DNA of 49,421 bases from an uncultured Bacilli bacterium (GCA_944350285.1 CALVOL010000001.1:1-49421); one strand, 5' to 3'; counted from the stretch's first letter, positions 30,345 to 49,369 are shown. Notes: generated from the letters alone by a model not told the origin. Made by a program: numbers and translations.

Positions 30345-30414
30345 ACGACCACCCTCGTACATTCATGGTAACAAAAAGAAGAAAAAAACACAATAGTTAT
30401 TTTCTTTTTATAAA

Positions 30415-31923: not shown

Positions 31924-31967
31924 ATGACACCGCCTTTATTTTTGTAATTATAGTTTCGCATATTTTT

Positions 31968-32001: not shown

Positions 32002-32018
32002 AAAAAAATTTCTTTTTT

Positions 32019-32915: not shown

Positions 32916-32944
32916 TGAAATAAAACCTCCATTCATGGCTATTT

Positions 32945-33029: not shown

Positions 33030-35000
33030 TTACGTTGTTTTTACTACGAATGGTTCATTTTGGGTTCCAATTCCAGATTCGATTTCAACATTGGCATTGA
33101 GGTTAATGACTGGTCTAACCAAAAGATTTAAATTCATTGAACCATTTGCATTTGCATACCCTGAATTATAAGAATAATATACGTTGGCTCTGCTTGTGCG
33201 CTCTAAAAAATAACTTGGCGATAATGTCCAATACCCAGCAGAAGAATAAACATAAGATAAAGGATTTAAATAGTTATTTGCATAACCTGATAAATATAAT
33301 TCATCATTCGTTATTAATCCGATTGGATAAGCTAAAGACTGATTGCCGATTTCATTCGACACCGTAAATAAATCTCCTTTAATATCTGAACACATTAATG
33401 AAGGATTATATCTAGTATACCTTTCTCTTGATGAATAGTAAGTTGTATTTTCTGTATTAAGTCCATCTCCATTCCAGTCATAACTTGCTAAAGTTCTATC
33501 ATTGCAAAATCCTGAATCTGTTATATAACTAGAATAATTATTTAAGTTTGCTTGATACCAATTTTCTAAATATATTTTTATTATGGAGTTATTTATATTT
33601 GCATTGACTTCATCTAGTGTAGTTCCATTGATGTCTCCATACATATATCCTGAATATAACGGTTTATTGACCGCATCATTAAATTTTGAAAATCCAATTC
33701 CTAAGTTTTCTCCTGTTGCATCTTTTGTATTTCCTGCATAAAGTAATCTAATACTTCCATCACCGTTGATTCTTATGATCCTCCAATAATATCCTGCAAA
33801 ATAAACATAGTTATTTTTTACACTCCCACGATAGTAATAACTTGTCCCATAATCGTCTTGCATCGCATATAATCCTTTATCACTCTTATCACTTTCTAAC
33901 TCTGTTTGATTATACCGATATCCAGTAAAAGTATATTGAATTGCCGGATACGTTTGACCATTAAAATCTGTTAGAGAAGTTTCTGTCTTGGTTACTCCCG
34001 TCACTTTCCGAATTGCTAGACCATAATTATTTGTAGAAGAATTCATTACTCCAGAAGAATTAATATCAGTAAAAGCTGAATAAAAATAATAATCATTGTT
34101 TTCATAATCTAGTGAGGTTGGATCTACATATTGTAAATTATTAATAGTATAATAGCCAGTTTCTGGATCAAACGTATAACTTGTTCCAACTGCTGGATAA
34201 ACATTTTCATCTGTTAGGTTTACTGCATAGTCTTTGCCACTTCCTACATCAGCTGGATCAGCCATATTTGCGGTTATGGAAGATGTAGTTGACTCGTGAC
34301 TTTCTTGCCATTCAATAATCGGAGCTGTTTTTGTAAAGTCTGGTTGTTGTTTTTGATTTATTTTGTCAATTGCAACTTGAACATCAGTCGTTTGATATTC
34401 GTTGGCTAGAATCGCATCGTGTAGTGTGGTGATTCCATTTTCTACTGGACTATACGTACTTGGAGTTGCTGTAATTACTATTCTTGCTTGAAACGTTTTA
34501 TTCATCGCATCATCTTCTACTGTGACATCTTCATCAAGCCATATTCTTAAGGCATAGTCTTCACTGTCTCCTGTTCCTAAAGAACCCGTTCCTAATATGT
34601 ATGCTTCTTTATAAAGGCTAGAGTCTGATACTGCTATAGTTTCTAGTTCATCTAATGTTTGAATGGCATTCGTGTTTAACATACTTGCTATATAGTTACT
34701 ATTTAGAGTACTTTCTTTCGTAATTTCTAATGTGATGGTATAGCTTGCAAATAAGTCACAGGTGTTTTCTACGGTAAAAGAATAAGGCACGGTTTGTCTT
34801 CCTTCTTCATCTAATAAAGGGTATGCATTTACTAAATTAATTGCATTTTCTTCTTTTGTTAGACTTAAACTTAAACAGGTACTTGCTATACGATTTATTC
34901 CTGTTTGGGATAATGTTAATCTCCAATACGCATAACTAACACCTATTATACATATAACACCTATTAGAGATCCTATCATTAACATTGTTTTCTTTTTCAT
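33030..35000 (-). CDS. large secreted or membrane-anchored protein of unknown function (Asn/Tyr/Ser/Thr-rich)
   Basis: The start is reassigned to ATG 34998-35000, after a GAGGGTGG SD, giving MKKKTMLMIGSLIGVICIIGVSYAYW (a signal peptide or anchor). The C-terminal part contains YYWRIIRINGDGSIRLLYAG and GYWTLSP...LLVRPVINL. These patterns recur in uncharacterised extracellular proteins of Firmicutes. Confidence 0.55.
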   Translation of the reverse strand: MKKKTMLMIGSLIGVICIIGVSYAYWRLTLSQTGINRIASTCLSLSLTKEENAINLVNAYPLLDEEGRQTVPYSFTVENTCDLFASYTITLEITKESTLNSNYIASMLNTNAIQTLDELETIAVSDSSLYKEAYILGTGSLGTGDSEDYALRIWLDEDVTVEDDAMNKTFQARIVITATPSTYSPVENGITTLHDAILANEYQTTDVQVAIDKINQKQQPDFTKTAPIIEWQESHESTTSSITANMADPADVGSGKDYAVNLTDENVYPAVGTSYTFDPETGYYTINNLQYVDPTSLDYENNDYYFYSAFTDINSSGVMNSSTNNYGLAIRKVTGVTKTETSLTDFNGQTYPAIQYTFTGYRYNQTELESDKSDKGLYAMQDDYGTSYYYRGSVKNNYVYFAGYYWRIIRINGDGSIRLLYAGNTKDATGENLGIGFSKFNDAVNKPLYSGYMYGDINGTTLDEVNANINNSIIKIYLENWYQANLNNYSSYITDSGFCNDRTLASYDWNGDGLNTENTTYYSSRERYTRYNPSLMCSDIKGDLFTVSNEIGNQSLAYPIGLITNDELYLSGYANNYLNPLSYVYSSAGYWTLSPSYFLERTSRANVYYSYNSGYANANGSMNLNLLVRPVINLNANVEIESGIGTQNEPFVVKTT

Positions 35001-35013
35001 TTGCACCACCCTC

Positions 35014-35058
35014 ACAACTATTGGTTGTATTTTTAAATATTATACAACTTGTAGTTGT
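35014..35058. promoter_or_regulatory. operator-like palindromes in the divergent XRE / secreted-protein intergenic region
   Basis: The palindromes are ACAACtattgGTTGT (35014-35028) and ACAACTtgtAGTTGT (35044-35058). A further AGTTGT half-site lies at 35078-35083. Confidence 0.4.
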
Positions 35059-35111
35059 CTGTGTCAATACAATTTTTAGTTGTACGTTAGAATATGCTTG
35101 GGGTGAACAAA

Positions 35112-35339
35112 ATGAACATAGATCGCTTAAAAGAACTACGAGAAGATAAGGATTTACTACAAAAAGACATTGCCAAATTACTGAAAGTATCGCAACAACA
35201 ATATGCCAAATATGAAATGGGGATTAACTCAATCCCTTTAGAAAAAATAAATATTCTAGCAGATTACTACCAAACAAGTGTCGATTATCTTATCAATCGT
35301 ACAAATGAAAGAAAACCATATCCTAAAATCAAAAAATAG
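35112..35339 (+). CDS. XRE-family helix-turn-helix transcriptional regulator
   Basis: It is 75 aa from the ATG at 35112, which follows a GGGGTGA SD. LRELREDKDLLQKDIAKLLKVSQQQYAKYEMG is a classic Cro/C1-type HTH. Confidence 0.8.
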   Translation: MNIDRLKELREDKDLLQKDIAKLLKVSQQQYAKYEMGINSIPLEKINILADYYQTSVDYLINRTNERKPYPKIKK

Positions 35340-35366
35340 CTATCCATTATCAAATAGCTATTTTTT
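35331..35366. terminator. bidirectional terminator between the XRE gene and the end of the surface-protein operon
   Basis: AAAAAATAGCTAT (35331-35343) pairs with ATAGCTATTTTTT (35354-35366) around a 10-nt loop. Confidence 0.6.
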
Positions 35367-35375: not shown

Positions 35376-38300
35376 TTATGTATTCAAAAATTTTCTTAAT
35401 ATCAAGATTGCATCTACCATTTCCTTTTTACCATTATTATTCATATCATAAACATAGAGTAAATCTTCTGTTTTAGCATATGTCCCTATAAAATAACGAA
35501 GACCTAAAACAAAATCTGTTACTTCAATTTTTCCATTTAAATTAATATCTCCCTTTAAAGCATCAGATTCAGTAATGACATTGACATTCACTGTTTTACT
35601 AATGCCATTCGAGGCTGTAATGACAATCGTCGTACTTCCTGTTTTTAGTCCCTTAATAGAGCCATCCTCTGTGACACTAGCAATACTAGGATCACTAATT
35701 TGATAAGTTAAAGTTTTGTCCATAGTGGTATCTGTAGGCATCACTGATGCATTTAAAGACACTTGACTCCCTAATGGAATAAAATAAGTAGCTTGAGCAG
35801 AGATACTAGTAATTTCTTTTTCCCCTTCTTCAACACTCACAGTAATTTGTGCTGTTTTATTATTACTTGATGTAGCCGTAATGATAGCATCTCCTGATTC
35901 CAATGCATTGATAGTTCCGTTTTCTGATACACTAACAATATTAGGATTACTACTTTGATACGTAATAGTTGTATCCATTGTTGTATAATAAGGGATAATA
36001 TCAACAGATAGATAAGCAATTTCTCCTTTTATTATATGCAGTGTTTCTTCACTAAAAGTAATTTCTTCAATTGGATACTCATCTGTCGTTTCTTTTTCTT
36101 CTTCTGATACAACAACTATTGCAGTAACAGCACTATTATCTACATGAAATGTAATGGTAGTCGTTCCAGGACTTATGCCTGTCAAAACTCCATTTTGATA
36201 CGTTGCAACCTCTTTATTTTGTGAATAGTAATTTGCCGATGAATTAGTACGATTTGTATAAGGCTTGGTCGTTACTGGTGTAATACTTTCACCTACTTTT
36301 ATAGTATAGACTTCTTGATCAAAAGATATTGGTTCATCTGATAGATATAACTCTAAAGTATCCGTATGTTCATCATCTAACTGTGCTGTAATTAAAGTAT
36401 ATCCACTTTTGTGATAAGTCACTTGTCCTGTTTCATCAATACTTGCAACTTCAGGATTAGAACTTATCCAAGTAACAGGCACTAAGTGAAAGTTTGTATA
36501 ATTATGATAATTCACCCATAAACCGGTACCTTTAAAACTCACGTCATCAATTCCTTGATAATTTAAGTATTGTTGTGGAAACACAGATTGGATTTCAATA
36601 TCAGGATATTCTACATCTAATACGATACTTTCATTTAAGATAAGAGAAGCCATCCATTGCAAATCAGTTTCATCGATCTTATCATCGCCATTGATGTCAG
36701 CCATTTTCAAATCATCTTCTGTTGTACTACCAATTTTTTGCTTTAAAAGTAAATAATCCTTTTGATTAATGAACGTGTCGTTATTTAAATCTCCTGGATA
36801 AACTACCGCATTCGTACTTAAAGTAATTGGTGTATTCACATAAATAAGAAGTTCAGCATCTCCTAAAGAAGTAGTTCCTTTTACTGTTGTAAATCCTCCA
36901 CCCTTTAGGGTTAATGACTCACCATTTGACGTTGCAACAAGAGGATTGCTACTTGAGATATTAGATAAATATTCCGTGTTGCCTAAATTCGTACTTAAAG
37001 ATATTTTCTGAGTGAGTAATCCCTCTAAATACAACATACTTTGTGGATCATTTAACAAATACTCTTCTACGACATGCACTTCCACTTGTCTTACTTCTCC
37101 ATTAGATAGTCTTGCTTTAATAGCAGTATTCCCTAAGCCACGAGCCGTAATAAGGCCATTAGAATCCACTATAGCAACAGAAGAATCTGTATAACTCCAA
37201 GTAAGAGTTTGATTACTCGCAACTTCTTCTGGTAATATGAGTGATTTTAATTGAAAGGTTTCCCCAACTGCTAAATATACCTCTGTCTTATTTAAATAAA
37301 AGTCTGAAACCTTTACTTGATTCACTGTTACAACAAGACTTTTAGATAAACCATTATCTCCACTTAAAGTAATAGTCGTACTTCCTACATTATGAAACGT
37401 CACTACTCCGGTATTATCTACACTTGCAATACTCGGATTTGCACTTTTCCACGTATACGTACTATTTTCATAGATACTTGGACTCACTGAATAACTAAGA
37501 GTAACTGGTTCACTTCCATAGTTCACATTCAAAGAAGAATAATTCAAAGTAATTGTCCCGTTCATAGTATCTAAATCTATATAGTCAATTCTATTCGTTC
37601 GAGCATAAACCCCAGTCTTAGAAGAACCATGTAAATAAATCGTTGCTGAAGTATCAGTAAAGCCCATCGCTTCTATTTCTTTCCCATAAATGACAATATC
37701 TTGTAAATTAGAAGCTCCTTTAAATGCATCACTATAAATATATTCTATAGACTCCGGCAAAGAAACACTTTTTAAACTAGCGCAATTTCGAAAAGCCTCT
37801 TCTCCTATAACCGCAACGTTATCTCCAAAAGTCACTTTCGTTAACTTGGTATTATCCATAAACATTCTTTTTGGTAACATGCGCAAGTTATCAGAGATCA
37901 CTACTTCTGAAATACCGAGTTCCCCAAAAGCAAGATAATCAACAAATGTGACACTATCAGGAATGATGAGAGTATCGCTTACTCCACTAAGCCCATGAAA
38001 AGCAGCTTGACCAATCGACTTTAACTTGTTATTTAAAGTAATACTTTTTATTTTGTCATTATAAGCAAAAGCAAATTTTCCAACATACAACACAGACTCT
38101 GGAAGTACTAAATCGCCAGTAAAACTAGTATTGTTTAGGTAATATGCATTTGCTGCAATGCCGATCACAGGTTTATTGTTAATGGAATCTGGAATAAAGA
38201 TATCCCCACTCGGTTCCATATTATTAAGACCTACTGCTTTTAATATCGTAATCCCATAATCTCCCTCTAAATAAAGTAAATCATAAGCATATTTGGAATG

Positions 38301-40070
38301 ATCTAGTGTATATTTTTTTACTTCTGGCCATGTATTTAAGTCTTTATATTTTACAAGTTCTACTTCTTTGGTATTAGGATTTTCAGTCGTATAATACAAG
38401 TCTCCATCTCGGACAAAGACAGCATAAACTTCTCTACTACTCGTTTTAGTAACTAACCGTTTTTGATTTGTTCCATCTGTATTGATACTACATAACTCAT
38501 AATTTTCGCTTACATAATAAAGTGTATCATTTTCTTTGACAAGACCGCTGCCGTTATTTCTAGGTTTTAGAACTTTCAGCATTCTTGTCGTGGTATTGTT
38601 TTGCCTGTCTTCCTTCATTAGATAAGCAACCCATTGATAATCGTAATTAACCTTTTCATAAAAACTTCTTAAATAATAACTAGCATTTTCATCATAGTAA
38701 GGATAAGAATGATAACTGGACTCAATTTCTATACCTTCTGGTAGGTTTTCTATATATCCATGACTATCATAGGTGTTACTATCAAAAACATACGTTAAAT
38801 TTTTCAAATAAGATTTTGTTTTAAAAGCAATGCCAGAATTTTGTGTAAACATCATTGCATAATCTTGCGTGACAACTCCTCTTTTTCCTACATCAAAATA
38901 AGACCATGCTCCATCAACATTGCACAAATTATATCCGTGATCTCTAGTTAAATCTATAATTTCCGTACAATAGGCACCACCTAAACCAGATAGATAATAC
39001 AAAGTATTCATATATCCGCCACAGACAGCCGAGTGATCGACTAACACCCCATAATAGGTTTGATGATCGCCATTAAATCCATATAAATTGCCATCTTGAG
39101 AATAAGCAAACGCTTTTTCGATCACTTCTTGCTCACTTAAGCCATAAGCGATAGATTCCTGAAAATACAGGGTATGCTGTTCCACTAAAAGATCTCGTTC
39201 ATCAATCTCTTGGCTAGTTAAACTGCCCATTTCAATATCAGACTTTAATTCGTCATTAATAGCAAAAGACCATAAATGATTGAGACTATCGTCATAATAA
39301 AACATCGCCGTTGTATATTCTTCACTAAGATTCGTACTATATGCTCCCATCGCATAGAAAAAAGGACTCACAGTAAAATAAGTAGAATTTTTATAATCCG
39401 TATCCGTTCTTTGATATAAAAATCTTTTGCCTTCACTATTCATTAAGGTACTTCGAAGACTCATTCCGTTTTCTTGATAGGTATAGGCAAGATCAAAGCC
39501 CTCTTCATAAAACTCTAAATAATTATTTTTTCCTAAAACATTTCGTACTGCGTTATACATGAGAACCCCGTGCTCTACATCACTCTTTTTATAAGTATAC
39601 AGATCTTTTTCGTAATTTGTTTTATAAAGCGATAAAAGGGAAGAAGAAGAATAACCACTTAATCGCTTGTTATAGAAAGCTCCTCCTTTAATGGTGCCAC
39701 TATCATTATAAAATAAACCTTTTAATAAAGATAAATCTTTATAATTATAATCATCTCCATAACTATAGGTATCCGTAGTATATCCTTCCATAACAGCGAC
39801 AAAAGAAGCAATTCTTCCATCACTTAATGTTTCTACATAAAAGTAATTATTGTAATTATCATCTGTATAAAAGGAATAAGCAGAGCCCCCAAATGGACTT
39901 GGAGTAATTAATTTTGCCTCTTTATACACCGCTAGCACATCATCAATTGTCGAATCATGATACAAAGTTAATTCATATTCACCACTTCCTTGATGTAAAA
40001 AGGGTGTTGCTGCTTGAACTTGAATACTTAGGAAAAACACAAATAAGAAAAAACAAATTTTTTTTATCAT
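35376..40070 (-). CDS. 1564-aa secreted multidomain protein: transglutaminase-like core, BspA-type LRRs, about 7 Big_2 domains, one internal and one C-terminal dockerin
   Basis: The signal peptide is MIKKICFFLFVFFLSIQVQA. The Cys/His/Asp core is VCGGYMNTLYYL...DHGYNLCNVDGAWSYFDV. The LRRs include IPDSV.FV...AF / LPESIEYIYSDAFKG. Big_2 units follow the pattern (P.DTT.D.T.TY.SS.PS.ASV...G...). The internal dockerin GDLNNDTFINQKD...ADINGDDKIDETD is at 36630-36800. The C-terminal dockerin GDINLNGKIEVTD...DMNNNGKKEMVD is at 35379-35558. Confidence 0.8.
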   Translation of the reverse strand: MIKKICFFLFVFFLSIQVQAATPFLHQGSGEYELTLYHDSTIDDVLAVYKEAKLITPSPFGGSAYSFYTDDNYNNYFYVETLSDGRIASFVAVMEGYTTDTYSYGDDYNYKDLSLLKGLFYNDSGTIKGGAFYNKRLSGYSSSSLLSLYKTNYEKDLYTYKKSDVEHGVLMYNAVRNVLGKNNYLEFYEEGFDLAYTYQENGMSLRSTLMNSEGKRFLYQRTDTDYKNSTYFTVSPFFYAMGAYSTNLSEEYTTAMFYYDDSLNHLWSFAINDELKSDIEMGSLTSQEIDERDLLVEQHTLYFQESIAYGLSEQEVIEKAFAYSQDGNLYGFNGDHQTYYGVLVDHSAVCGGYMNTLYYLSGLGGAYCTEIIDLTRDHGYNLCNVDGAWSYFDVGKRGVVTQDYAMMFTQNSGIAFKTKSYLKNLTYVFDSNTYDSHGYIENLPEGIEIESSYHSYPYYDENASYYLRSFYEKVNYDYQWVAYLMKEDRQNNTTTRMLKVLKPRNNGSGLVKENDTLYYVSENYELCSINTDGTNQKRLVTKTSSREVYAVFVRDGDLYYTTENPNTKEVELVKYKDLNTWPEVKKYTLDHSKYAYDLLYLEGDYGITILKAVGLNNMEPSGDIFIPDSINNKPVIGIAANAYYLNNTSFTGDLVLPESVLYVGKFAFAYNDKIKSITLNNKLKSIGQAAFHGLSGVSDTLIIPDSVTFVDYLAFGELGISEVVISDNLRMLPKRMFMDNTKLTKVTFGDNVAVIGEEAFRNCASLKSVSLPESIEYIYSDAFKGASNLQDIVIYGKEIEAMGFTDTSATIYLHGSSKTGVYARTNRIDYIDLDTMNGTITLNYSSLNVNYGSEPVTLSYSVSPSIYENSTYTWKSANPSIASVDNTGVVTFHNVGSTTITLSGDNGLSKSLVVTVNQVKVSDFYLNKTEVYLAVGETFQLKSLILPEEVASNQTLTWSYTDSSVAIVDSNGLITARGLGNTAIKARLSNGEVRQVEVHVVEEYLLNDPQSMLYLEGLLTQKISLSTNLGNTEYLSNISSSNPLVATSNGESLTLKGGGFTTVKGTTSLGDAELLIYVNTPITLSTNAVVYPGDLNNDTFINQKDYLLLKQKIGSTTEDDLKMADINGDDKIDETDLQWMASLILNESIVLDVEYPDIEIQSVFPQQYLNYQGIDDVSFKGTGLWVNYHNYTNFHLVPVTWISSNPEVASIDETGQVTYHKSGYTLITAQLDDEHTDTLELYLSDEPISFDQEVYTIKVGESITPVTTKPYTNRTNSSANYYSQNKEVATYQNGVLTGISPGTTTITFHVDNSAVTAIVVVSEEEKETTDEYPIEEITFSEETLHIIKGEIAYLSVDIIPYYTTMDTTITYQSSNPNIVSVSENGTINALESGDAIITATSSNNKTAQITVSVEEGEKEITSISAQATYFIPLGSQVSLNASVMPTDTTMDKTLTYQISDPSIASVTEDGSIKGLKTGSTTIVITASNGISKTVNVNVITESDALKGDINLNGKIEVTDFVLGLRYFIGTYAKTEDLLYVYDMNNNGKKEMVDAILILRKFLNT

Positions 40071-40082
40071 AAATACTCCCCT

Positions 40083-42059
40083 TTAATAAGTGTTTAAAAA
40101 TCTTCGTAATATCAAAATGGCATCAATCATTTCTAGTTTTCCATTTTCGTTCATATCATAGACGTATAATAAATCCTCTGTTTTGGCATAAGTACCAATA
40201 AAATAACGTAAGCCTAGAATAAAATCGATAATTTGTATTTCACCATCGAAGTTCATATCACCTTTTATGTAAGGAACGTCCCCAGTAACTGTCACCTCTA
40301 TACTTTTACTTATATTATTTTTTGTAGTTACTGTAATCGTCGTTTTACCTGGATATTTTGCCGTAATAAGGCCAGTGTCACTGACAGTGGCTACAGATGG
40401 ATTACTACTTATATACGTTAGTGTTTTATCCATCGTTGTATCACTTGGTGTAATGGTAGTTTGTAATTGATAAGTATCTGTGTATTCTAATTCTACATGA
40501 GTCGTATTTACCTCGATACTTTCAATGGCATTGTAAATATTTAATTTATTGATACTTAACGTTTTACCACTAGTAGTTGTCCAATAAAGAAATCCGTTTT
40601 TTTCTACGTAATGTTCTTCATTATTCAATGATACATTTTCAATTGCAGTGGCTTCTTTTACCACATTTGCATCCTGATCAATTACCATATAGTAAGTTGT
40701 TGTTTTACCGCTCGGATAAATTCCCTCATCAGAATTATTGGAAGTCTGTTCTTGTTCCCAAACAATAATGATATTTCCATCACTTAATTTGCTCGCACGA
40801 ATTAGTATAATCGTTTCATCTTCTAAACTAGTAAGCCATTTCATACCATAGTCTACTTCATCACCGGTTAAATAAAGCCTTCCTACACCATTGTATTCAC
40901 TTTTCTCACCTGTGACAATTCTAGGTTCAGTATCAAGCATTTGCATGTCTTCTGCATTTTCTAATGTATAAAAATCCTTTGTATACTTCTGTACAAAAAT
41001 ATCCCATGGATGATTCATCGCACTACCATATGATGCACTTAAAACTTTGTCCATAGCGCCAATATAAAGATATCCGTCATCTACTTCGATTAAACTTCCT
41101 AAGGCTTGATTTGTCATATTGTATCCATGGGATGAGGCACCACCTTCGGTAAAATGAACGACTCTTTTGGTCGCGATATTTAGATAATCAAAATCATCGT
41201 CATCACTTGTATAATGATCTAAGTAAATTTTAGATAACATTAATCCCCTTGTGGCACCAGCATCGCCTACTTCCATAAGCAAATATCCACCATCACTCGT
41301 TTTGATAATTCTTTGCCCTAGAGAATGCGAAATGCTGTGACTGGCAGTTGTAAAATACATGTGACGGTAATCTGTATTTAGGGAGGCATCTTGAATCCGA
41401 CTCATATGTTCTAATGTTTCGGTATTAATGTACATAATTAAACTGCTTTGATGGCCATTATACATGTTTCCACCAAAAAACAAAGTTAAAACTCCATTTT
41501 GAATCGTCATACTAGAGCTTGCTGTATAATATAAAATATCCATTCCATATCCAGTTGCTCCGACCATTCCATTCGCATTTAAATATTGGCCTTGATACTC
41601 CTTTAATAATACCAAATCACCATTCGTATCGTATTTACCAACCGCCAAAACGTTACTGGTATATCTTTCCGTGCTTGTCGTTCCATAAGATGGTTTTTGA
41701 TATAACACATACAAATATCCATCTTCATAAATCGCCCCACCTGTACCATAGAAAAATATTTCTTGACCTGCGTTTAACCCACTATTGTCATATAAAGTAG
41801 CCCAACTTCTGGTTTTAATCATATTTAGATTACTATCAAACGTTGACCAATAAATGGTGTTCTCACTCCGATAAACAGAATTAAAGTTGCCATTTTCATC
41901 AAAGAAATCATAAACCATAGAAGGACCCTCTGTATTATATGTAAAACTATTTAATGGAGGGTCACTAGATTTTAACGTTTCCTCTATAGTAAAAGTCTTG
42001 GCATTGCCACACATAATAAAACTCAAAAATAAAGTACAGAAAAATAATATTTTTTTCAT
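40083..42059 (-). CDS. 658-aa secreted protein: uncharacterised N-terminal domain, one Big_2 domain, C-terminal dockerin
   Basis: The signal peptide is MKKILFFCTLFLSFIMCGNA. The Big_2 unit is ITPSDTTMDKTLTYISSNPSVATVSDTGLITAKYPGKTTITV. The C-terminal dockerin GDMNFDGEIQIID...DMNENGKLEMID is at 40086-40268. It has a 4-nt overlap with srtB. Confidence 0.75.
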   Translation of the reverse strand: MKKILFFCTLFLSFIMCGNAKTFTIEETLKSSDPPLNSFTYNTEGPSMVYDFFDENGNFNSVYRSENTIYWSTFDSNLNMIKTRSWATLYDNSGLNAGQEIFFYGTGGAIYEDGYLYVLYQKPSYGTTSTERYTSNVLAVGKYDTNGDLVLLKEYQGQYLNANGMVGATGYGMDILYYTASSSMTIQNGVLTLFFGGNMYNGHQSSLIMYINTETLEHMSRIQDASLNTDYRHMYFTTASHSISHSLGQRIIKTSDGGYLLMEVGDAGATRGLMLSKIYLDHYTSDDDDFDYLNIATKRVVHFTEGGASSHGYNMTNQALGSLIEVDDGYLYIGAMDKVLSASYGSAMNHPWDIFVQKYTKDFYTLENAEDMQMLDTEPRIVTGEKSEYNGVGRLYLTGDEVDYGMKWLTSLEDETIILIRASKLSDGNIIIVWEQEQTSNNSDEGIYPSGKTTTYYMVIDQDANVVKEATAIENVSLNNEEHYVEKNGFLYWTTTSGKTLSINKLNIYNAIESIEVNTTHVELEYTDTYQLQTTITPSDTTMDKTLTYISSNPSVATVSDTGLITAKYPGKTTITVTTKNNISKSIEVTVTGDVPYIKGDMNFDGEIQIIDFILGLRYFIGTYAKTEDLLYVYDMNENGKLEMIDAILILRRFLNTY

Positions 42060-42790
42060 GAGTCACTCTCACTTTCTACTAAAACTCCATGCATAATAAT
42101 ACGATCTTTATTTGTATAATAACATGTCGATAACGTTATAATTTGATGACTTGTACTCGTCGCTTCAAAAGAAATATGACTTCGTATTTTACTCATCTCT
42201 ATAAAGGAAGAAGATACATTTTTTTGAATACTCGTTCCATCACTAGGAGATGCAAGATAAATAGAATACACCTGATAAACATACTTAGTTTCTGGCGTAT
42301 AATAAGTTATTTGAATTTGATTGCCGTACTCTCCATTATAAATATCTAAAAGTGGGCCAAACATAGTCTCATCTAATGTATTATGTCCAAAAAGCACTGT
42401 ATTGGTATCACTCATATCCGGATGATTATCAGCATTCATAAAAATCCAACCACGCCTATTGTATGTTTGATCAAAAGATCTTCTTAAATAATACTCATTA
42501 TCTTCACCTTGAACTACAGGATAAGATATCGGGGTACCATCTACAACAATATATCCAACAGTATCTTCATTTTTGGCCTTTAATATATCAAAATTCACGG
42601 TAGGATTATTTAAAGAAATCTCACCAATATTCTCTTGTATTTCTAAAATAATATCTTCAGTATGTCTCTCATCTCTAAAAGATACAAATGCTTGATAGAA
42701 AAAATACCCACATAAAATTAAGAAGATACAAATTAAAGAACTCCAAATAAATTTTTTAAGAGGTTTTTTTAGTTTTCTTTTTTTTGCCAT
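42056..42790 (-). CDS. srtB: class B sortase
   Basis: It is 244 aa with an N-terminal membrane anchor. VGYIVVDGTPISYPVVQGEDNEYYLRRS, NTVLFGHNTLDETMFGPL and ITLSTCYY (TLxTC catalytic Cys) match the class B layout, for example in clostridial SrtB. Confidence 0.8.
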   Translation of the reverse strand: MAKKRKLKKPLKKFIWSSLICIFLILCGYFFYQAFVSFRDERHTEDIILEIQENIGEISLNNPTVNFDILKAKNEDTVGYIVVDGTPISYPVVQGEDNEYYLRRSFDQTYNRRGWIFMNADNHPDMSDTNTVLFGHNTLDETMFGPLLDIYNGEYGNQIQITYYTPETKYVYQVYSIYLASPSDGTSIQKNVSSSFIEMSKIRSHISFEATSTSHQIITLSTCYYTNKDRIIMHGVLVESESDS

Positions 42791-43502
42791 AAATCAAAAT
42801 TCCTCCAATAATAATGAAAAGAAAGACAAAAGCAAGAACAACAAGATAATAAGGAAAACTTTTTTCTTCTTCATTTTCTACTTTAGGACTTACTACAGTA
42901 ATTGTCTCAATAACATTTCCCTCACTATCCACTCCCTCTACTATCACCTCACCATCCTGGTGAAAAACTACATTTCCATGCTCATCCACCGTAGCAATCG
43001 CCTCATCTTGGCTAGAATAGGAAATACCATCTTTGGTTAAGTGTATTTCATTCGTTTTAGAAACGATAGAAGAACTCACTTCATAGTCCAAGGTCGTATA
43101 TTCATCAAAACCATAGTCTGTAACCTCTATCGCAAGTTCTGTCTGATCTTGAAAGCCTTCCTTCGCCTGAAAATTTAAGGAAGCAATCGTATCACCACTC
43201 ACTTCTAACAATTCGTCACTAAGATTAAACGCATAAATGGTAATCACGCCATCTACTTGTTCTAAGCCATGATACAAGCCATTTTTTAAAGAATTTAACT
43301 CTCCACCCATAAACTCTAGTTTTGTTTGGTCATAAGAAATTTTAATTCCTAAGACTTTAAATTCTTCATAATTTGTTATTTTTAACGGAACTTGAAACTC
43401 TGTTTGTTCTTGTAATACGACATAAGGAATCGAAAAGTTTGCTTTAGCATTTACAAGATATGGACAAAGAAAAAGGAGAAAGAATAAAATCCACTTTTTC
43501 AT
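42756..43502 (-). CDS. 248-aa membrane-anchored protein with an N-terminal cohesin-like module
   Basis: The signal peptide ends LVNA. The cohesin-like segment (about 43098-43445) contains LGIKISYDQTKLEFMGGEL...DTIASLNFQAKEG. A short Ig-like segment follows. The C-terminus has a TM helix plus a KKKKTKK tail. It has ATGA overlap with the upstream gene and a 35-nt overlap with srtB. Confidence 0.6.
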   Translation of the reverse strand: MKKWILFFLLFLCPYLVNAKANFSIPYVVLQEQTEFQVPLKITNYEEFKVLGIKISYDQTKLEFMGGELNSLKNGLYHGLEQVDGVITIYAFNLSDELLEVSGDTIASLNFQAKEGFQDQTELAIEVTDYGFDEYTTLDYEVSSSIVSKTNEIHLTKDGISYSSQDEAIATVDEHGNVVFHQDGEVIVEGVDSEGNVIETITVVSPKVENEEEKSFPYYLVVLAFVFLFIIIGGILIYGKKKKTKKTS

Positions 43503-46129
43503 ATCGTATTTAAAAATGTCCGTAATATCAAGATGGCATCGACCATTTCCATTTTGCCATTGCCATTCATATCATAAACTTCTAACAAATCTTCTCCTTG
43601 TCCATAAGTTCCAATAAAATACCGTAACCCAAAAATGAAATCAATAATCTCTATTTTTCCATTATGATTCATATCACCTTTTAAAACATTGGAAACAGTC
43701 ACTGTCGCCCTAACAGTTTGACTACCATATTTTCCTGTAATTATCGTTGTTCCAAGTTGTTTTCCAGTAATCACACCATTTTCATCAATAGTTGCAATTG
43801 AACTATCTAAACTTTTCCAAGTAATTAACGAAGGCATAATATAAGTATCTGGATTTGTCTTTAAAGAAGCTGTGGCAGTACCATTTAAACTTACAGTATA
43901 AGCATCTTTCTCCATCGCTACAGTATATTCTCCTGAAGCATAAATTGTATAATTTTTGGTAATCACTCCATCATAAATTCCTTTACCCCGAATTGTCATG
44001 GTCACAAGGCCTGGACCACGATAGTTATTGATAGAAGTTGTGTAATCTGTATCTTTTACTAACTCTTTTCCTTCATAAGTCACAGTCACACTAGGAACTA
44101 AAGATTGCCCAATATAAATATAATCCGGAATATCACTAACGATAGCTTTTGTAAAATCTAAAGGATTGATAGTAAACGTTAAGTCATTTAAATAAACTGT
44201 TTCATACCCAGACTTAACAATTCGAGCACCAAAAGTATAAGTTCCTGGCATCGTATATTCTCTTAATTCCGTCGTTAACCCAGAAGAAGAAGAATTTCCA
44301 TAATAAACAGTTGCCCCTTCTTCCGCAACAATGAGAGGAGACTGTACAGATCCTGTATAATCTACAACAGAATTCGTATAACTCCAATCAATCTGTGGTT
44401 CCGTAATCTCATAATATTGCTCGGTATATCCCACATAATTGCCGATTCCAGTGATATAAGCAACTCCTGTTTGATATGCACTAGTACCCTTTCTTAAAGT
44501 CACTTTAAAGTCCTTATCTTGAACTAATGTATAATCGCCATCTTTAATCACTATTTCTGGCATATTCGGCTCATCAGCATTAAACTCAGCCGAACCAATC
44601 GTAAATTCTAAATCATTAATTAGCTTAAATTCCGTTTGATCTTCCGTAATCACGCCATATGGGCAATCATTTTCAATCGCATACTGAATAGCGGTAGAAC
44701 CTTCTACTCCATAAATAGCCTGACTTACCCCACACAAATTGGTTCCTAACTCTGCATCTTTATTTTTAATCACAAGATAATGCAGATCCGTAGTAGAATC
44801 ATAGATTCCAGAACTACGACTAAATGCACTATCACCAATATAAGAAACACTCTCTGGAACAACAAATCCATCAGCAACATTCCCATAAAAAGCTCTTGCT
44901 TCTATTTTTTCTACTGTATTTGGAAACACAACTTCTTTTAAATGTTCGTTATAAGAGAAAGCAGCTTCTGCAATAGTAACTACTCCATCCTTAATGGTAT
45001 ATTCACTCGCATCTTTGCCAGATGGATAACTATAAATAACTGTTTGATCTTTATTATAAAGAACTCCATCTTCACTCGAATAATTTGGATTATCACTTTC
45101 TACAATCACATTTTTCAAAGATGGTACATGTTGAAATGCTCCAGTTTCAATGGTAGTAATTTCTTTTGGAACCGTCACATTTTCGACAACAGTATGCTCG
45201 TTAGATCCATAATAGAAAGCATAAGTTCCAAGAGTTGGAATCACTACACCAAAATCCGATGGAATTCTAACGTCTTTTTCATATCCATCATACTGAGTAA
45301 TATACAAATCCCAGGAATCAGTATAACTAGTAGAAAAACCACCAAGTAACTTAGAAATCGTCGTGGAACGTGGGGCAGGCTCGTTATACCCAGCTTCTAT
45401 CATATACATCTCACCATCTAACAATGCCGCTACATTATGATGATTACTGCCAGCTCCAGCATCACGCACAGCATTTCTTAAATGGGCTTTAATTCCTACT
45501 TTGTCGCAAAAATATAAGATAGCCTCACTTGAAGCAATACAATCGCCACCCCCACCGACAAATAACCCTGTATAATCATAATGTTCTACAGAATACTCAG
45601 TAGTAGCCATTAATTTTAAAAATTCTTGCATCTTTTCATATTCGCTCATATCATCGCTAATATGTTCAGTAATATAATCATCCATAATTTTTTCGGCCGC
45701 GATAGTTTCATAAGCAGAAGTCCGAACGAGTACCTGATAAACAGTATTTCCATTCGTTACTTCAACAATATTTTCTCCTTCGTCATAGGTGATTATTTCT
45801 TCTGCACCACTGATTGGAGCAGTAGTACAGTAAGTACTAGTACAATACATAGTAGTTCCTTTTACACTCACTACGCCATCATCGCTTACAGTAATGGTAT
45901 TACCAGAAACTAACTCGTATGTCGTATTACTACCGGCTCCAACGGTGATTTTCTTAGAAGTAGGATAATCATCAGGCAACGTTAATGCTTCTTGATAATC
46001 TTCACTCAAAAAATATAAATCAATGATCTCTGCATATTCATCGGCTGAAATAGCATTTACAAAAACTAAAGTACCAAGAAAAATGGCAAACATCATACTA
46101 AAAAATACTTTTTTCCAATGTTTTTTCAT
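43499..46129 (-). CDS. 876-aa secreted protein: transglutaminase/cysteine-protease-like core, BspA-type LRRs, Ig-like repeats, C-terminal dockerin
   Basis: It has a signal peptide. The core is GGGGDCIASSEAILYFCDKVGIKAHLRN...NHHNVAALLDGEMYMIEAGY (Cys codon at 45539-45541). The LRRs include ITTIETGAFQHVPSLKNVIV and VTIAEAAFSYNEHLKEVVFP. The C-terminal dockerin GDMNHNGKIEIID...DMNGNGKMEMVD is at 43502-43684. Confidence 0.75.
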   Translation of the reverse strand: MKKHWKKVFFSMMFAIFLGTLVFVNAISADEYAEIIDLYFLSEDYQEALTLPDDYPTSKKITVGAGSNTTYELVSGNTITVSDDGVVSVKGTTMYCTSTYCTTAPISGAEEIITYDEGENIVEVTNGNTVYQVLVRTSAYETIAAEKIMDDYITEHISDDMSEYEKMQEFLKLMATTEYSVEHYDYTGLFVGGGGDCIASSEAILYFCDKVGIKAHLRNAVRDAGAGSNHHNVAALLDGEMYMIEAGYNEPAPRSTTISKLLGGFSTSYTDSWDLYITQYDGYEKDVRIPSDFGVVIPTLGTYAFYYGSNEHTVVENVTVPKEITTIETGAFQHVPSLKNVIVESDNPNYSSEDGVLYNKDQTVIYSYPSGKDASEYTIKDGVVTIAEAAFSYNEHLKEVVFPNTVEKIEARAFYGNVADGFVVPESVSYIGDSAFSRSSGIYDSTTDLHYLVIKNKDAELGTNLCGVSQAIYGVEGSTAIQYAIENDCPYGVITEDQTEFKLINDLEFTIGSAEFNADEPNMPEIVIKDGDYTLVQDKDFKVTLRKGTSAYQTGVAYITGIGNYVGYTEQYYEITEPQIDWSYTNSVVDYTGSVQSPLIVAEEGATVYYGNSSSSGLTTELREYTMPGTYTFGARIVKSGYETVYLNDLTFTINPLDFTKAIVSDIPDYIYIGQSLVPSVTVTYEGKELVKDTDYTTSINNYRGPGLVTMTIRGKGIYDGVITKNYTIYASGEYTVAMEKDAYTVSLNGTATASLKTNPDTYIMPSLITWKSLDSSIATIDENGVITGKQLGTTIITGKYGSQTVRATVTVSNVLKGDMNHNGKIEIIDFIFGLRYFIGTYGQGEDLLEVYDMNGNGKMEMVDAILILRTFLNTI

Positions 46130-46189
46130 AAATCCTCCATTTCTTTTTTAGTAAAAAGAACCCCCTATAGAAAGGAGTTCCTTAACCAA

Positions 46190-49100
46190 TTAATTTAATT
46201 TAACTCTTTTATAAAGAGCGAAGCACACACCTAAGAATGATATCAATGCTGCTATGACATAAGAACTCACACTGGCTACTCCTGTTTCGGGAGATACAAT
46301 TTCCTCGATTGTTACATCCATCGTTGTAACAACACCATTTGATGCCGTAACTGTAATACTAGCACTACCCGCTCCAACAGCTGTCACCAGACCATTTTCA
46401 TCAACCATTAATACAGAAGAATCACTTGAAGCAAAAGTAAATGTTACATCATCTGTTGTATCACTTGGATTCTTAGTAATTTCTAATTGAAATTGATCTC
46501 CAACATTCATAGAACTAATTGGTTTGTTAATAGAAATGCTCTCTAAAGGTACTTCTTTTACTACCACTTTATAACTAGCAGTTACATTTTTAATTGTAGC
46601 AGTAATTACTGTCTCTCCTTTTTTAAGAGCTGTAACAACCCCATCTTCATTTACAGTTGCCACTTCTTCGTTACTAGAAGTCCATGTTAAATCATCAAGT
46701 TCTGTAGCATCAGTAGGATTAATTATTAATTCTTGGCTACCAGTTTTACCAATATTAATCGTTATCTCATCAGCATCAAAGAATAAATCTTGCACTTCGA
46801 TGGTTTTTACCGTTACCATAACTTCAATACTCATACCATTTTTCAAAGTTCCAGTAATCACGGTACTGCCACCCATCACTCCTGTTACTACCCCTTGTTC
46901 ATTCACTGTCGCAATTTTTTCATTTTGACTTTTCCATGTAATGGTTGTGTCTTCTGTTGTATCAAGAGGAGTAATCGTTGTTTTTAAATAAGTAGTCTGT
47001 CCTCGAATGACAGAAACGTTTTCTTCTACTGCTTCAAAGTTAGTAATAGGTACACTTACATGAACTTGTAATGTTGCAGTCACATCTTTTATTGAAGCTA
47101 TAATCGTCGCGTCTCCTGACCCAATCGCAACTACATGACCATTTTGATCTACCGTTGCTACACTTGTATCACTACTTTTCCATGTAATTGCAGTTTGATC
47201 CGTCGTATCACTTGGATTTCTCGTTGCAACAATATCAAATGTCTCTCCACGATTTAATGAAAGATTTGTAGCATTTAAGGAAATTGATTCTACAGGTACT
47301 AAAACTTCAACCGTAATTTCATCCTTGATTTCTCCAATACTTGCAGTAATTACAGAAGTTCCAGGCCCTACAGCCCTTAATACTCCATTTTGAATCGTCA
47401 CAGCATCTGGATTACTACTATTCCATACAATCTTATTTGTATCAGTCGTATCACTTGGATTTTTTGTTGCTTCTATCTTTTTTTCTTCTCCACGATTCAA
47501 AACTAAACTTTCTGACTGAATCGTAATACTTGTAAGTGGTACTACTACAGACACACTAATTTCTACACTTTTACCATTTTCTAGAGTTCCAGTAATAATA
47601 GCATTTCCACCTTTAAGCGCAACTATCTTTCCAGATTCATCGATGGTTACTACACTCGTATCACTACTTTTCCATGTAACATTCCGATCCTCTTCGGCAT
47701 CTTCCGGATAAACTAAAACACTTACTGTCGTTTCTTCTCCTTTATTCATTGCAATACTGTCTTGACTAGGATAAACAGTATCAATTGGAATTAAAACATG
47801 TACAGAAATATCTTTCGTAATAGTACCAACCTTCACATGAACTGTTGTACTTCCTGAATTTACAGCTTTAATAACTCCATTTTCTACCGTAACGATATCA
47901 GAATTATCACTACTCCAAGTTACAGTTGTATCATCCGTAGTATCACTAGGAGCAATCGTTACATCAACTTTCTTCTCTTGACCCGGAAGCATTTCTAAAG
48001 AACTATCACTTACAATAATATCTTCTAATGGCACAATAACATCCACTTTTGCTGTTACTTTCATACCATTTTCTAGTGTTCCTGTAATAGTGACACCTTT
48101 ACCACCTTTTAATCCGGTAATTTCTCCGAATGTTGAAACTGAAACAATAGACGGATCACTTGATTCCCATGTTACAGTTTTATTTTCTGTAGTATTTGTA
48201 GGAGTATAAATCACATTTAGAGTTTTCGTCTCGCCTCTCGTTAGCTCGAACTCACTACTCTCTAAAGAAACGTTTTGTAAAGATATTACAACTTCCACTT
48301 CATATGTATTTAATACTCCATTACTTGCCGTAGCCGTAATAGTAGTTTTTCCAGGAGCAACTCCTGTAACTGTTCCATGTTCATCTACGGTAGCACAATC
48401 CGGATTACTGCTGGTATATGTAATCGTTTTATCATCTGTAGTATCACTTGGACTTACAGTTGCAACATTGGTAATCTCACTACCAACATCAACTTTTTGA
48501 GTTCCTGTTTTTTCAAAATTTACTGCCGTGATTGGTGTAGTAACATTTACATCTAATGTAAACTCACTTCCATAAGCAGAAACAGTAACAGTTGTAGATC
48601 CATTTCCTACAGCCGTTAAATTTCCACTATCATCGACTGTGACTATACCCGTATCATTTGATACAAAAGAATAATTTGCATCTACGGTTGTATCGCTTGG
48701 ACTATAGCTTACTGCTATCGTTTCACTACTTCCTTTTATCATGTTATATGTTTTCTTCGCTATATCAACACTATCCAAAGGAACATTTACAAAGTATGTT
48801 CCACTTTCTGTTGAAATAAGTAAAACTTCTTGTTCCGTGCCATGAATCTTGACATAGCTTTCAGCTGGCGCTGTTAAACTAATAACATGAGATCCAGCTT
48901 TAGCATCTTCTTTGACTTTAAAAGTAATATCAATTAAAGCCCCATCATTCATAGAAATGTAAGCATCAGATCCACTGACTACATACAAATTCAAAAGACC
49001 TTCTACATCATTTCGTAAACCAGTCATCGGCCCACTGTCTAAATGAAATGAATAATCATTTTCAAATTCTAGAACACTTGTGTCATATTCAATATTCAAA

Positions 49101-49291
49101 ATAAGTGAACTGAACTCTTCAACACTTTGCCCAGAAATTGTAAATGTCACTTCTTCACCACGGACTAAATCATCATGACTACTAATCGTAAATTTAGTTT
49201 CCTCACTAGCCTGAGTACCTAGTATTGCTGTGGCAAACCCAACTACAATTAGTAATATGACTAAAATTCCCTTTTTAGGCTTTTTCACCAT
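46190..49291 (-). CDS. 1033-aa wall-anchored scaffold-like protein: N-terminal cohesin-like module, ten Big_2 domains, SPETG sortase signal
   Basis: The start is reassigned to ATG 49289-49291 (the track uses GTG 49297). It has a signal peptide. The cohesin-like segment (about 48785-49198) contains LILNIEYDTSVLEFEN...ALIDITFKVKEDAKAG. Ten units of about 83 aa each contain SPSDTTD..T.TW.SS....TV...G. The C-terminus is SPETG (46280-46294), a hydrophobic stretch, then KRVKLN. Confidence 0.75.
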   Translation of the reverse strand: MVKKPKKGILVILLIVVGFATAILGTQASEETKFTISSHDDLVRGEEVTFTISGQSVEEFSSLILNIEYDTSVLEFENDYSFHLDSGPMTGLRNDVEGLLNLYVVSGSDAYISMNDGALIDITFKVKEDAKAGSHVISLTAPAESYVKIHGTEQEVLLISTESGTYFVNVPLDSVDIAKKTYNMIKGSSETIAVSYSPSDTTVDANYSFVSNDTGIVTVDDSGNLTAVGNGSTTVTVSAYGSEFTLDVNVTTPITAVNFEKTGTQKVDVGSEITNVATVSPSDTTDDKTITYTSSNPDCATVDEHGTVTGVAPGKTTITATASNGVLNTYEVEVVISLQNVSLESSEFELTRGETKTLNVIYTPTNTTENKTVTWESSDPSIVSVSTFGEITGLKGGKGVTITGTLENGMKVTAKVDVIVPLEDIIVSDSSLEMLPGQEKKVDVTIAPSDTTDDTTVTWSSDNSDIVTVENGVIKAVNSGSTTVHVKVGTITKDISVHVLIPIDTVYPSQDSIAMNKGEETTVSVLVYPEDAEEDRNVTWKSSDTSVVTIDESGKIVALKGGNAIITGTLENGKSVEISVSVVVPLTSITIQSESLVLNRGEEKKIEATKNPSDTTDTNKIVWNSSNPDAVTIQNGVLRAVGPGTSVITASIGEIKDEITVEVLVPVESISLNATNLSLNRGETFDIVATRNPSDTTDQTAITWKSSDTSVATVDQNGHVVAIGSGDATIIASIKDVTATLQVHVSVPITNFEAVEENVSVIRGQTTYLKTTITPLDTTEDTTITWKSQNEKIATVNEQGVVTGVMGGSTVITGTLKNGMSIEVMVTVKTIEVQDLFFDADEITINIGKTGSQELIINPTDATELDDLTWTSSNEEVATVNEDGVVTALKKGETVITATIKNVTASYKVVVKEVPLESISINKPISSMNVGDQFQLEITKNPSDTTDDVTFTFASSDSSVLMVDENGLVTAVGAGSASITVTASNGVVTTMDVTIEEIVSPETGVASVSSYVIAALISFLGVCFALYKRVKLN

Positions 49292-49342
49292 ACACACTTT
49301 CCTTTCTAAACTCTATTTTATGCAAAATTAGTTATCTTGCTT

Positions 49343-49369
49343 TTTCATAAAGTATTTTACTTTATGAAA
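49343..49369. promoter_or_regulatory. perfect 12-bp-arm palindrome upstream of the surface-protein operon
   Basis: The sequence is TTTCATAAAGTA-ttt-TACTTTATGAAA, about 50-80 nt upstream of the first gene's start. No U-tract follows on either strand, so an operator or protein-binding site is more likely than a terminator. Confidence 0.3.

Follow-up and report, generated by a model that had tools for sequence, protein, structure and literature searches.

We analysed a 49,421-nt stretch of DNA from an uncultured Bacilli bacterium (GCA_944350285.1, CALVOL010000001.1:1-49421; the whole stretch is hereafter termed the window), a contig from the chromosome of a low-GC spore-former, and concentrate here on six genes (G1-G6) that span positions 35376-49291, all on the minus strand. 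They encode two cohesin-bearing proteins, a class B sortase, and three dockerin-bearing proteins, a combination that points to a candidate cassette for displaying proteins on the cell surface. The genes and the two hairpins that accompany them are as follows (aa, amino acids).

46190..49291, minus strand: G1, 1033 aa, predicted wall-anchored monovalent cohesin stalk protein, read as an open reading frame (ORF)
43499..46129, minus strand: G2, 876 aa, dockerin cargo protein
42756..43502, minus strand: G3, 248 aa, predicted membrane-anchored cohesin protein
42056..42790, minus strand: G4, 244 aa, class B sortase
40083..42059, minus strand: G5, 658 aa, dockerin cargo protein
35376..40070, minus strand: G6, 1564 aa, dual-dockerin cargo protein
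46155..46183, minus strand: terminator-like hairpin in the 60-nt gap between G1 and G2, a 12-bp stem followed by a U-rich tail
35331..35366, minus strand: intrinsic terminator-like hairpin directly after the G6 stop codon, a 15-bp stem with a U tract

An ORF check recovered all six co-directional genes where the initial annotation had placed them, with the same junctions: a 60-nt gap between G1 and G2, overlaps of 4 nt (G2/G3), 35 nt (G3/G4), and 4 nt (G4/G5), and a 12-nt gap between G5 and G6. The hairpin behind G6 (folding free energy, dG, -15.3 kcal/mol; z = -5.55; 0 of 200 shuffled sequences fold as well) marks the end of the operon. RNA folding assigned the hairpin in the G1-G2 gap a dG of -17.4 kcal/mol (z = -2.4), a consensus scan flagged the same site, and this element may be an attenuator that decouples expression of the anchor from that of the cargo. 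No Rfam family reached its gathering score in 70 kb comprising the whole window and L001, a scaffold sequence that continues past the window end. Rfam was also used to look for a leader ahead of G1, either a riboswitch or a c-di-GMP element; it gave no match at gathering thresholds and, at E <= 1, only one at the level of chance.

The two anchor proteins are built from a small set of modules, all encoded on the minus strand.

G1, aa 1-28: signal peptide
G1, aa ~30-172 (window 48776-49204): cohesin, by Pfam on the isolated module
G1, aa ~175-990 (window 46322-48769): ten Big_2 domains, by Pfam
G1, aa 1000-1033 (window 46193-46294): sorting signal, SPETG with a hydrophobic stretch and KRVKLN
G3, aa 1-19: signal peptide
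G3, aa ~20-150: cohesin
G3, aa 159-202: Big_2-like module
G3, aa 216-248: C-terminal transmembrane helix and KKKKTKKTS tail, without a sortase motif

When the whole G1 and G3 proteins were scanned against Pfam, Cohesin (PF00963, cut-off 24.1 bits) was not listed, and Big_2 was found in ten stretches of G1 (E 6e-100). Scanned in isolation, the N-terminal modules of both proteins pass the Cohesin cut-off (G1, 42.3 bits; G3, 28.4 bits), and a profile built from eight cohesin modules of the window and of related cassettes retrieved 22 PDB matches at E <= 0.01, all of them cohesins (best E 3.7e-11). The 19 best Foldseek matches of a weak single-sequence AlphaFold2 model of G3 are likewise all cohesins, at weak E-values (7e-4 to 2e-2), and include the non-cellulosomal cohesins of Clostridium perfringens (PDB 2w1n, 2jh2, 2o4e, 2vo8). 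The assignment of two cohesins behind signal peptides, originally made from residue patterns, thus stands. When all ORFs of the window and of the 4.3 kb upstream of it were scanned, two cohesins and four dockerins were detected and no more, each of them encoded by one of the six genes; window ORFs outside the operon carry no dockerin. To speak of a scaffold or a complex, as was done initially, overstates this inventory: G1 and G3 carry one cohesin each, which implies a display stalk rather than a multi-enzyme scaffold. Cellulosomes, amylosomes, and mucinolysomes in the strict sense have a multi-cohesin scaffoldin, and the two cohesins of the window sit on separate proteins. A word-indexed search with G3 returned near-identical copies only, with no relatives below 90% identity.

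G4 carries an N-terminal membrane anchor, His136, and the catalytic Cys223 in a TLSTC motif, and matches PF04203 (Sortase) at 56.5 bits. Among sortase classes TIGR03064 is its best, about 70 bits above the others, and all 15 of its PDB matches are SrtB (best 1.7e-24), which bears out the proposal of a class B sortase gene in the middle of the operon. The same operon supplies a candidate substrate with a non-LPXTG signal, a criterion for class B enzymes: the C-terminus of G1 consists of SPETG, 24 mostly hydrophobic residues, and KRVKLN. Since SrtB of Clostridioides difficile cleaves (S/P)PXTG in vitro, and not LPETG or NPQTN (PMC4155245), the sorting signal does match the class of the enzyme. 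The related anchors described below end in SPDTG, SPNTG, SPKTA, or TPKTG. Cohesins and dockerins were absent from all 80 of the closest sortase loci in reference genomes (33-38% identity), each of which was scanned, so that the cassette is untraceable through its sortase.

The cargo proteins are larger and more varied, and are organised as listed here, again on the minus strand (LRR, leucine-rich repeat).

G2, N-terminus: signal peptide
G2, aa 152-252: transglutaminase-like core (Cys197/His230/Glu245)
G2, aa ~300-445: LRR_5, by Pfam
G2, aa ~445-765: region without a family match
G2, aa 767-811: Big_2
G2, aa 817-876 (window 43502-43681): dockerin
G5, aa ~20-505: predicted beta-propeller, preceded by a signal peptide
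G5, aa 512-588: Big_2
G5, aa 599-658 (window 40086-40265): dockerin
G6, aa ~25-290: domain A (CAP_assoc_N-like), preceded by a signal peptide
G6, aa 296-402: transglutaminase-like core (Cys350/His378/Asp393)
G6, aa ~505-565: propeller-blade-like segment
G6, aa ~650-820: LRR_5
G6, six stretches on both sides of the internal dockerin: Big_2 repeats, by Pfam
G6, aa 1092-1146 (window 36633-36797): internal dockerin
G6, aa 1506-1564 (window 35379-35555): C-terminal dockerin

All three proteins exceed the Dockerin_1 cut-off (PF00404, 22.9 bits), with 26.7 bits for G2, 28.6 for G5, and 56.8 for the two stretches of G6. Read from the sequence, every one of the four dockerins has two canonical 12-residue Ca-binding loops of the pattern D-x-[ND]-x-[ND]...D, each followed by a helix (the loops are DMNHNGKIEIID...DMNGNGKMEMVD in G2 and DLNNDTFINQKD...DINGDDKIDETD in the internal dockerin of G6). 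The three C-terminal dockerins are mutually 76-79% identical although they terminate otherwise unrelated proteins, in agreement with the near-identical module first noticed there; that earlier inventory had overlooked the fourth dockerin, internal to G6, which is 32-36% identical to the C-terminal type. The LRR_5 modules (60.9 bits in G2 and 94.7 bits in G6) and the Big_2 modules of the cargo are Pfam matches in the whole proteins, as anticipated.

The transglutaminase-like cores were recovered by remote homology. Transglut_core (PF01841) gave no match in the isolated N-terminal domains of G2 and G6 even at E <= 10, and a PDB sequence search returned nothing for the N-terminal domain of G2 and only a designed-propeller repeat for the N-terminal region of G6. 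A full HMMER search of 1.8 billion representative sequences with that region (600 aa) as the query resolved two independent domains, and weak relatives aligned over query residues ~290-375 (approximately G6 aa 310-395) proved to be PF01841 members in 10 of 10 tested cases, with Cys350, His378, and Asp393 in register. Against a custom model of those relatives, G2 scored 27.7 bits and kept Cys197 and His230, with Glu245 in place of the Asp. The Cys-His-Asp cores of the initial annotation therefore hold for G6 and, less firmly, for the Cys-His pair of G2. The first of the two domains, domain A, has no Pfam match in G6 itself and its profile has no PDB match; 6 of 12 members of its family weakly match CAP_assoc_N, and in related cassettes it stands before a CAP domain. 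The large domain of G5 (~490 aa), previously set down as uncharacterised, is now predicted to be a beta-propeller by an AlphaFold2 model from a 28-sequence alignment (predicted local distance difference test, pLDDT, 92.2; predicted template modelling score, pTM, 0.92). Its Foldseek matches among solved structures, which include CylK, semaphorins, a polysaccharide lyase of family PL24, sialidases, and glycoside hydrolases of families GH43 and GH145, are at fold level only (TM <= 0.38), with no close relative. In the alignment of this N-terminal domain, ten residues are invariant (H226, S227, Q230, R252, E306, Q338, K342, R361, D384, and Y385 in alignment numbering).

Pfam detected no family of glycoside hydrolases (GH), polysaccharide lyases (PL), carbohydrate esterases (CE), or carbohydrate-binding modules (CBM), either in G1-G6 or among the cargo proteins that related cassettes encode. 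The statement that the operon has no carbohydrate-active module accordingly holds for recognisable families, and must be read in that sense, because the propeller fold of G5 is common to sialidases, GH43, and PL24. Dockerin-bearing carbohydrate-active enzymes (CAZymes) or CBMs, the other strict mark of a cellulosome, are absent from the window, which represents one contig.

The six genes are not an isolated arrangement. The G5 family has about 25 homologs at 34-65% identity, most of them with a dockerin and some with SLH or FN3 domains, and at least six further metagenomic lineages show the parts of the cassette again in the vicinity of a diverged homolog of G5. Around homologs at 37-56% identity the parts list is found in L083/L084, L086/L087, L088, and L089, and partially in L091 and L092 (numbers are our handles for the loci), with gene order shuffled and with cargo that adds CAP, Peptidase_S8 (subtilase), and LRR_5 types. 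L083/L084 (G5 identity 56%) encode a 1023-aa anchor with a cohesin and Big_2 domains that ends in SPDTG, CAP-dockerin, G5-like-dockerin, and Big_2-dockerin proteins, and a 263-aa cohesin protein with a transmembrane helix whose gene is overlapped by a sortase gene. In L089 (47%), an SPNTG anchor is accompanied by orthologs of G2 (L089_3132) and G5, a protein combining Peptidase_S8, LRR_5, and a dockerin, and a transmembrane cohesin protein, again with an overlapping sortase gene. L086/L087 (37%) combine an SPKTA anchor and a sortase with five dockerin proteins, including CAP and LRR_5 types, and L088 (42%) combines two sortases and a TPKTG anchor with G6-like proteins that each have an internal dockerin in addition to the C-terminal one (L088 3108-6329 and 12727-15669). 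The presence of dual dockerins in L088_3108 and L088_12727 indicates that this architecture is conserved and not an accident of the window. L092, from a human (Hadza) gut sample, contains a dockerin protein and orthologs of G5 and G1, and L091 contains G5-like genes and genes that combine LRR_5, CAP, and a dockerin. Orthologs of the G1 anchor are present in L083, L089, and L092, and three cassettes (the window, L083_14986, and L089_11400) have overlapping G3-type and sortase genes. With respect to conservation, the parts recur together and the six-gene order does not, being shuffled and combined with other cargo; this recurrence around diverged G5 homologs strengthens the original reading of a self-contained kit. 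A profile of the Big_2 and dockerin C-termini retrieved short fragments only.

In L090 (3560-8035), from an SLH-bearing organism, LRR_5 plus Big_2 cargo and G5-type propeller cargo end in SLH rather than in dockerins. SLH is here an alternative anchoring solution for the same proteins, and its replacement of the dockerin on the same cargo types supports a role in surface display. As a side observation, L089 also encodes (8143-8703) a 186-aa protein composed of a signal peptide, one Ig-like module, and a dockerin of the cassette type. The module aligns loosely with cohesins and gives a sub-threshold match to Inhibitor_I42 (chagasin-type, 21.3 bits), and, judged by these similarities, the protein may be an adaptor or a protease inhibitor.

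A comparison across cassettes separates the binding modules from the remainder of the proteins. Dockerins are near-identical inside each cassette and unrelated in detail across cassettes. Among G5 orthologs the propellers are 40-63% identical and the dockerins 20-29% (63% and 22%, respectively, between the window and L083); among G1 orthologs the stalks are 40-46% identical and the cohesins 25-31% in 5 of 6 pairs. The exception is the pair L083-L089, whose cohesins are 40% identical and whose dockerins are also the most similar (52%). Such concerted evolution within cassettes and rapid divergence between them is the pattern expected from shared, cassette-specific recognition of a partner.

Taken together, these data make it probable, in our judgement, that the operon is a sortase-anchored cohesin-dockerin surface display cassette in which G1 and G3 provide the sockets and G2, G5, and G6 the dockerin plugs. 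The family of each module, the linkage of the genes, and the recurrence and cassette-specific divergence of the binding modules are observed; export, sortase specificity, the partnering of dockerins with cohesins, and an adhesive or proteolytic role belong to the proposed scheme. In this scheme, the five non-sortase products would be exported by the Sec pathway through their N-terminal signal peptides, after which membrane-anchored G4 would cleave G1 between the threonine and glycine of its signal (SPET|G) and join it to peptidoglycan. The ten Big_2 domains of G1 would then form a stalk, presumably long enough to clear the wall, that carries the single cohesin at its tip. G3, with its hydrophobic segment and basic tail and without a sortase motif, would stay in the membrane and present a second, diverged cohesin near the cell. 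G2, G5, and G6 are predicted to dock non-covalently and in a Ca2+-dependent manner through their C-terminal dockerins, and would compete for the same cohesin type. The outcome would be a coat in which LRR adhesin modules, propellers, and transglutaminase-like modules, the last probably of the cysteine-protease type, are mixed, with a presumably adhesive or proteolytic role, and not an ordered multi-enzyme complex. The internal dockerin of G6 probably addresses the other cohesin, in which case G6 could be held twice or could connect the wall anchor with the membrane anchor. That the overlap between the G3-type and sortase genes is conserved in three cassettes suggests that the membrane cohesin acts at the sorting site, and we speculate that it might, for example, capture cargo before or during transfer of the anchor to the wall.

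Several observations weigh against parts of this scheme. The single transcription unit proposed at the outset is favoured by co-directional genes and tight spacing, and is weakened by the terminator-like hairpin 3' of G1. The model of G3 is of low confidence (pLDDT 56), and the 137 bits of G4 under TIGR03064 fall below the NCBIfam equivalog cut-off of 153.75. The sortases of the cassettes are 30-36% identical to one another (49% for L083-L089), no closer than they are to sortases at loci free of cohesins and dockerins, so the enzyme is dedicated to the cassette by adjacency only. L089 and L092 break the correlation between binding modules, with dockerins 50% and G1-type cohesins 25% identical, and no G3-type cohesin was seen in L086 or L088.

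Each ingredient of the cassette has a published precedent. In Ruminococcus flavefaciens, ScaE is a sortase-anchored protein with a single cohesin, and the group 4b dockerin operon (ORF01263-01267) comprises four transglutaminase-like-dockerin genes and one LRR-dockerin gene (PMC2930009). Like G1, ScaE is covalently attached to the wall through a sortase, and the group 4b operon resembles the window in its head-to-tail genes for signal-peptide proteins, its transglutaminase-like and LRR modules, and its one near-identical C-terminal dockerin. ScaE differs in its LPXTG motif, in relying on a housekeeping sortase encoded elsewhere, and in anchoring the multi-cohesin ScaB that carries CAZymes, whereas the window has an SPETG anchor, a class B sortase within the operon, a ten-Big_2 stalk that would take cargo directly, a second, membrane-anchored cohesin whose gene is coupled to the sortase gene, and no CAZyme cargo that we could see. 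The toxin and glycosidase complexes of C. perfringens likewise pair single cohesins with dockerins outside plant-fibre degradation in a low-GC gut Firmicute (PMC12997984); there, both modules reside on large secreted glycoside hydrolases dispersed over the genome, in contrast to the dedicated operon, non-catalytic anchors, sortase, and non-CAZyme cargo of the window.

The amylosome of Ruminococcus bromii (PMC4611034) and the mucinolysome of Limousia (PMC12997984) also tether dockerin proteins, including peptidases, to the wall of gut bacteria of the Clostridium type by a sortase-anchored N-terminal cohesin, as in Limousia cSca5, which combines such a cohesin with LPxTG (PMC12997984). They differ from the window in their multi-cohesin scaffoldins, genome-scattered dockerin GH enzymes, and LPxTG anchors, and no sortase or membrane-cohesin gene has been reported within their clusters, whereas the window has both. 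SrtB of C. difficile, like G4, is a class B sortase that goes with surface substrates of the adhesin type, in which SPxTG is combined with a hydrophobic segment and a basic tail (PMC4155245); those substrates are direct adhesins or hydrolases without a cohesin, whereas G1 would be an adaptor for the non-covalent display of other proteins. Genome-wide surveys of scaffoldin-containing, presumably non-cellulolytic microbes have described single cohesins with C-terminal transmembrane helices, as in G3 (Front Microbiol 2024, PMC11557425), as well as R. difficilis scaffoldins with LRR, Ig, or MucBP domains and ruminococcal scaffoldins with LRR and CAP domains (PMC13463774). These systems share with the window dockerins fused to non-CAZyme domains and few or no lignocellulose enzymes, and differ in that no compact operon with a class B sortase, an SPxTG stalk anchor, and recurring cassette-specific dockerins was described (PMC11557425, PMC13463774). 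The cassette therefore follows the known cohesin-dockerin principle and appears new in its compact packaging, not as a category. In the full-text literature we found no description of the whole package, namely a class B sortase, a monovalent SPxTG stalk, and a membrane cohesin coupled to the sortase, united in one operon with cargo that is without exception non-CAZyme and shares a private dockerin, recurring across lineages in shuffled form and sometimes beside mobile-element genes; as most subscription journals lie outside that coverage, its novelty is unproven.

The surroundings of the operon add two features of note.

35094..35339, plus strand: Xre-type HTH_3 gene, 81 aa (PF01381, 49 bits), convergent with G6 and sharing a common terminator region
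49342..49367, no strand assigned: 26-nt palindromic element TCATAAAGTAnnnnTACTTTATGAAAA, about 50 nt upstream of the G1 start codon

The L084 cassette has a homolog of the HTH_3 gene (E 5.6e-13) at its edge, which suggests a possible cassette-linked regulator; we regard the gene as a candidate regulator whose membership in the system is uncertain. Past the end of the window, the ENA metagenome scaffold continues with a tyrosine integrase gene divergent from G1, two T2SSF genes, and one T2SSE gene. A repeat search located two copies of the palindrome, at L001 2778-2803 and 4136-4161, which bracket only the integrase gene; one is the copy near G1, and the other lies across the integrase gene from it, beyond the window end. 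The palindrome may be an att-like duplication left by the insertion of a minimal integrase module, or alternatively an operator or terminator. Apart from this pair around the integrase gene, no att sites bracketing the whole operon were found, and a search of a plasmid collection gave no match.

On the far side of the operon, positions 33030-35015 (minus strand) encode a 661-aa membrane protein with an N-terminal membrane helix (...VSYAYWRL...) and no Pfam match, which was rejected as a member of the cassette because it has no counterpart at the other cassettes. The T2SSE and two T2SSF genes (L001 1-2722) lie across the integrase and the operon from it, and their position beyond the integrase suggests that the cassette may interrupt a pilus-like locus. 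Farther downstream, an IS66 transposase gene (438 aa) and a second gene (305 aa) with weak likeness to PD-(D/E)XK transposases occupy 30607-32936 (minus strand), between the operon and the housekeeping genes, which include GerA, ThrRS, SerRS, MiaB, RNase R, Fpg, and PFL genes. One ORF of 589 aa (28593-30362, minus strand) fuses a formamidopyrimidine-DNA glycosylase (Fapy_DNA_glyco, H2TH, and a zinc finger) to a C-terminal HD phosphohydrolase. According to Rfam, thrS and serS lack T-box leaders, and both lie within operons with almost no upstream spacer. In L092, positions 1482-8000 and 8049-13456 hold conjugative-element genes together with the cassette, which lies directly downstream of them.

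Three other explanations were weighed. The operon could serve as an accessory arm within a larger system of cohesins and dockerins that degrades carbohydrates (of the cellulosome, amylosome, or mucinolysome type), with CAZyme-dockerin proteins encoded elsewhere plugging into G1 and G3, and with G5 cleaving or binding glycans. Our view is restricted to one 49-kb contig, a cellulosome producer, R. flavefaciens FD-1, has a probable operon of transglutaminase-like and LRR dockerin genes (PMC2930009), the mucinolysomes of Limousia combine dockerin peptidases with a sortase-anchored single-cohesin protein (PMC12997984), and the best fold matches of G5 include a PL24 lyase, sialidases, GH43, and GH145, all of which would suit such an arm. 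We nevertheless consider it unlikely, given that 0 of about 30 cargo proteins in seven cassettes carry a recognisable GH, PL, CE, or CBM family, that the anchors are monovalent with no multi-cohesin scaffoldin in sight, that the likeness of G5 is at the level of fold, and that the window ORFs outside the operon are free of dockerins. A more radical doubt concerns the binding itself: the modules might be cohesin-like and dockerin-like by descent and not pair, the dockerins acting as Ca2+-binding stabilisers or binding another ligand and G1 and G3 being ordinary Ig-domain surface proteins. Cohesins and dockerins occur together in 4,333 human-gut metagenome-assembled genomes, most of them uncharacterised (PMC12997984), and the Cohesin score of G3 lies 4 bits above the Pfam cut-off. 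Yet the carriers of the two modules are repeatedly linked, in seven cassettes, the dockerins are homogenised within cassettes and diverge between them alongside cohesins that diverge faster than their background, and the window dockerins all have canonical Ca-binding loops, so that non-pairing appears highly improbable.

The remaining explanation treats the cassette as cargo of a mobile element (an integrative and conjugative element or an integrative island), forming an adhesin coat for aggregation or stabilisation of mating pairs, with the private pair and the sortase giving portability between hosts. The sortase-anchored aggregation substances of Gram-positive conjugative plasmids offer an analogy. 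The genes directly upstream of the L092 cassette include TrbL_2, a VirB4/TraG-type ATPase, HU, and Peptidase_M23, and the L083/L084 cassettes, too, have a homolog of HU (43-44% identical) at their flank. In the window, the tyrosine integrase with its duplicated palindrome abuts the operon, transposase genes of the IS66 and PDDEXK types are located 2-5 kb downstream of it, and the GC content of the operon is slightly above that of the rest of the window (0.338 versus 0.313); an integrase also lies near the L091 cassette, and genomic contexts vary among cassettes. Set against this, the 35 kb downstream of the operon are housekeeping without conjugation genes, the repeat pair encloses the integrase gene and not the operon, L085 and L086 sit among ordinary chromosomal genes, and the GC difference is small. 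On balance we hold mobile-element cargo to be quite improbable as the explanation of the locus, and return to the sortase-anchored display cassette as the preferred one.

A bolder extension of the display cassette, which we put forward tentatively and consider rather doubtful, is that such loci are portable, mutually orthogonal plug-and-socket cassettes with private, diversifying pairs, moved on integrative or conjugative elements and possibly for the benefit of the element (aggregation or mating). If this were true, recipient gut Firmicutes could instantly display swappable adhesins, proteases, and CAP proteins. The cassette-specific dockerins offer natural, presumably orthogonal binding pairs for synthetic biology, and two recurring cargo domains, the propeller of G5 and the CAP_assoc_N-like domain A, may function in host or microbe interactions of uncultured gut bacteria. 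The locus also offers a concrete case for the role of membrane-anchored single cohesins, which genome surveys have noted but left unexplained. More broadly, the cassette would carry cohesin-dockerin pairing beyond ordered machines for polysaccharide degradation, to a minimal and modular means of decorating the Gram-positive surface with adhesins and proteases that comes with its own class B sortase.

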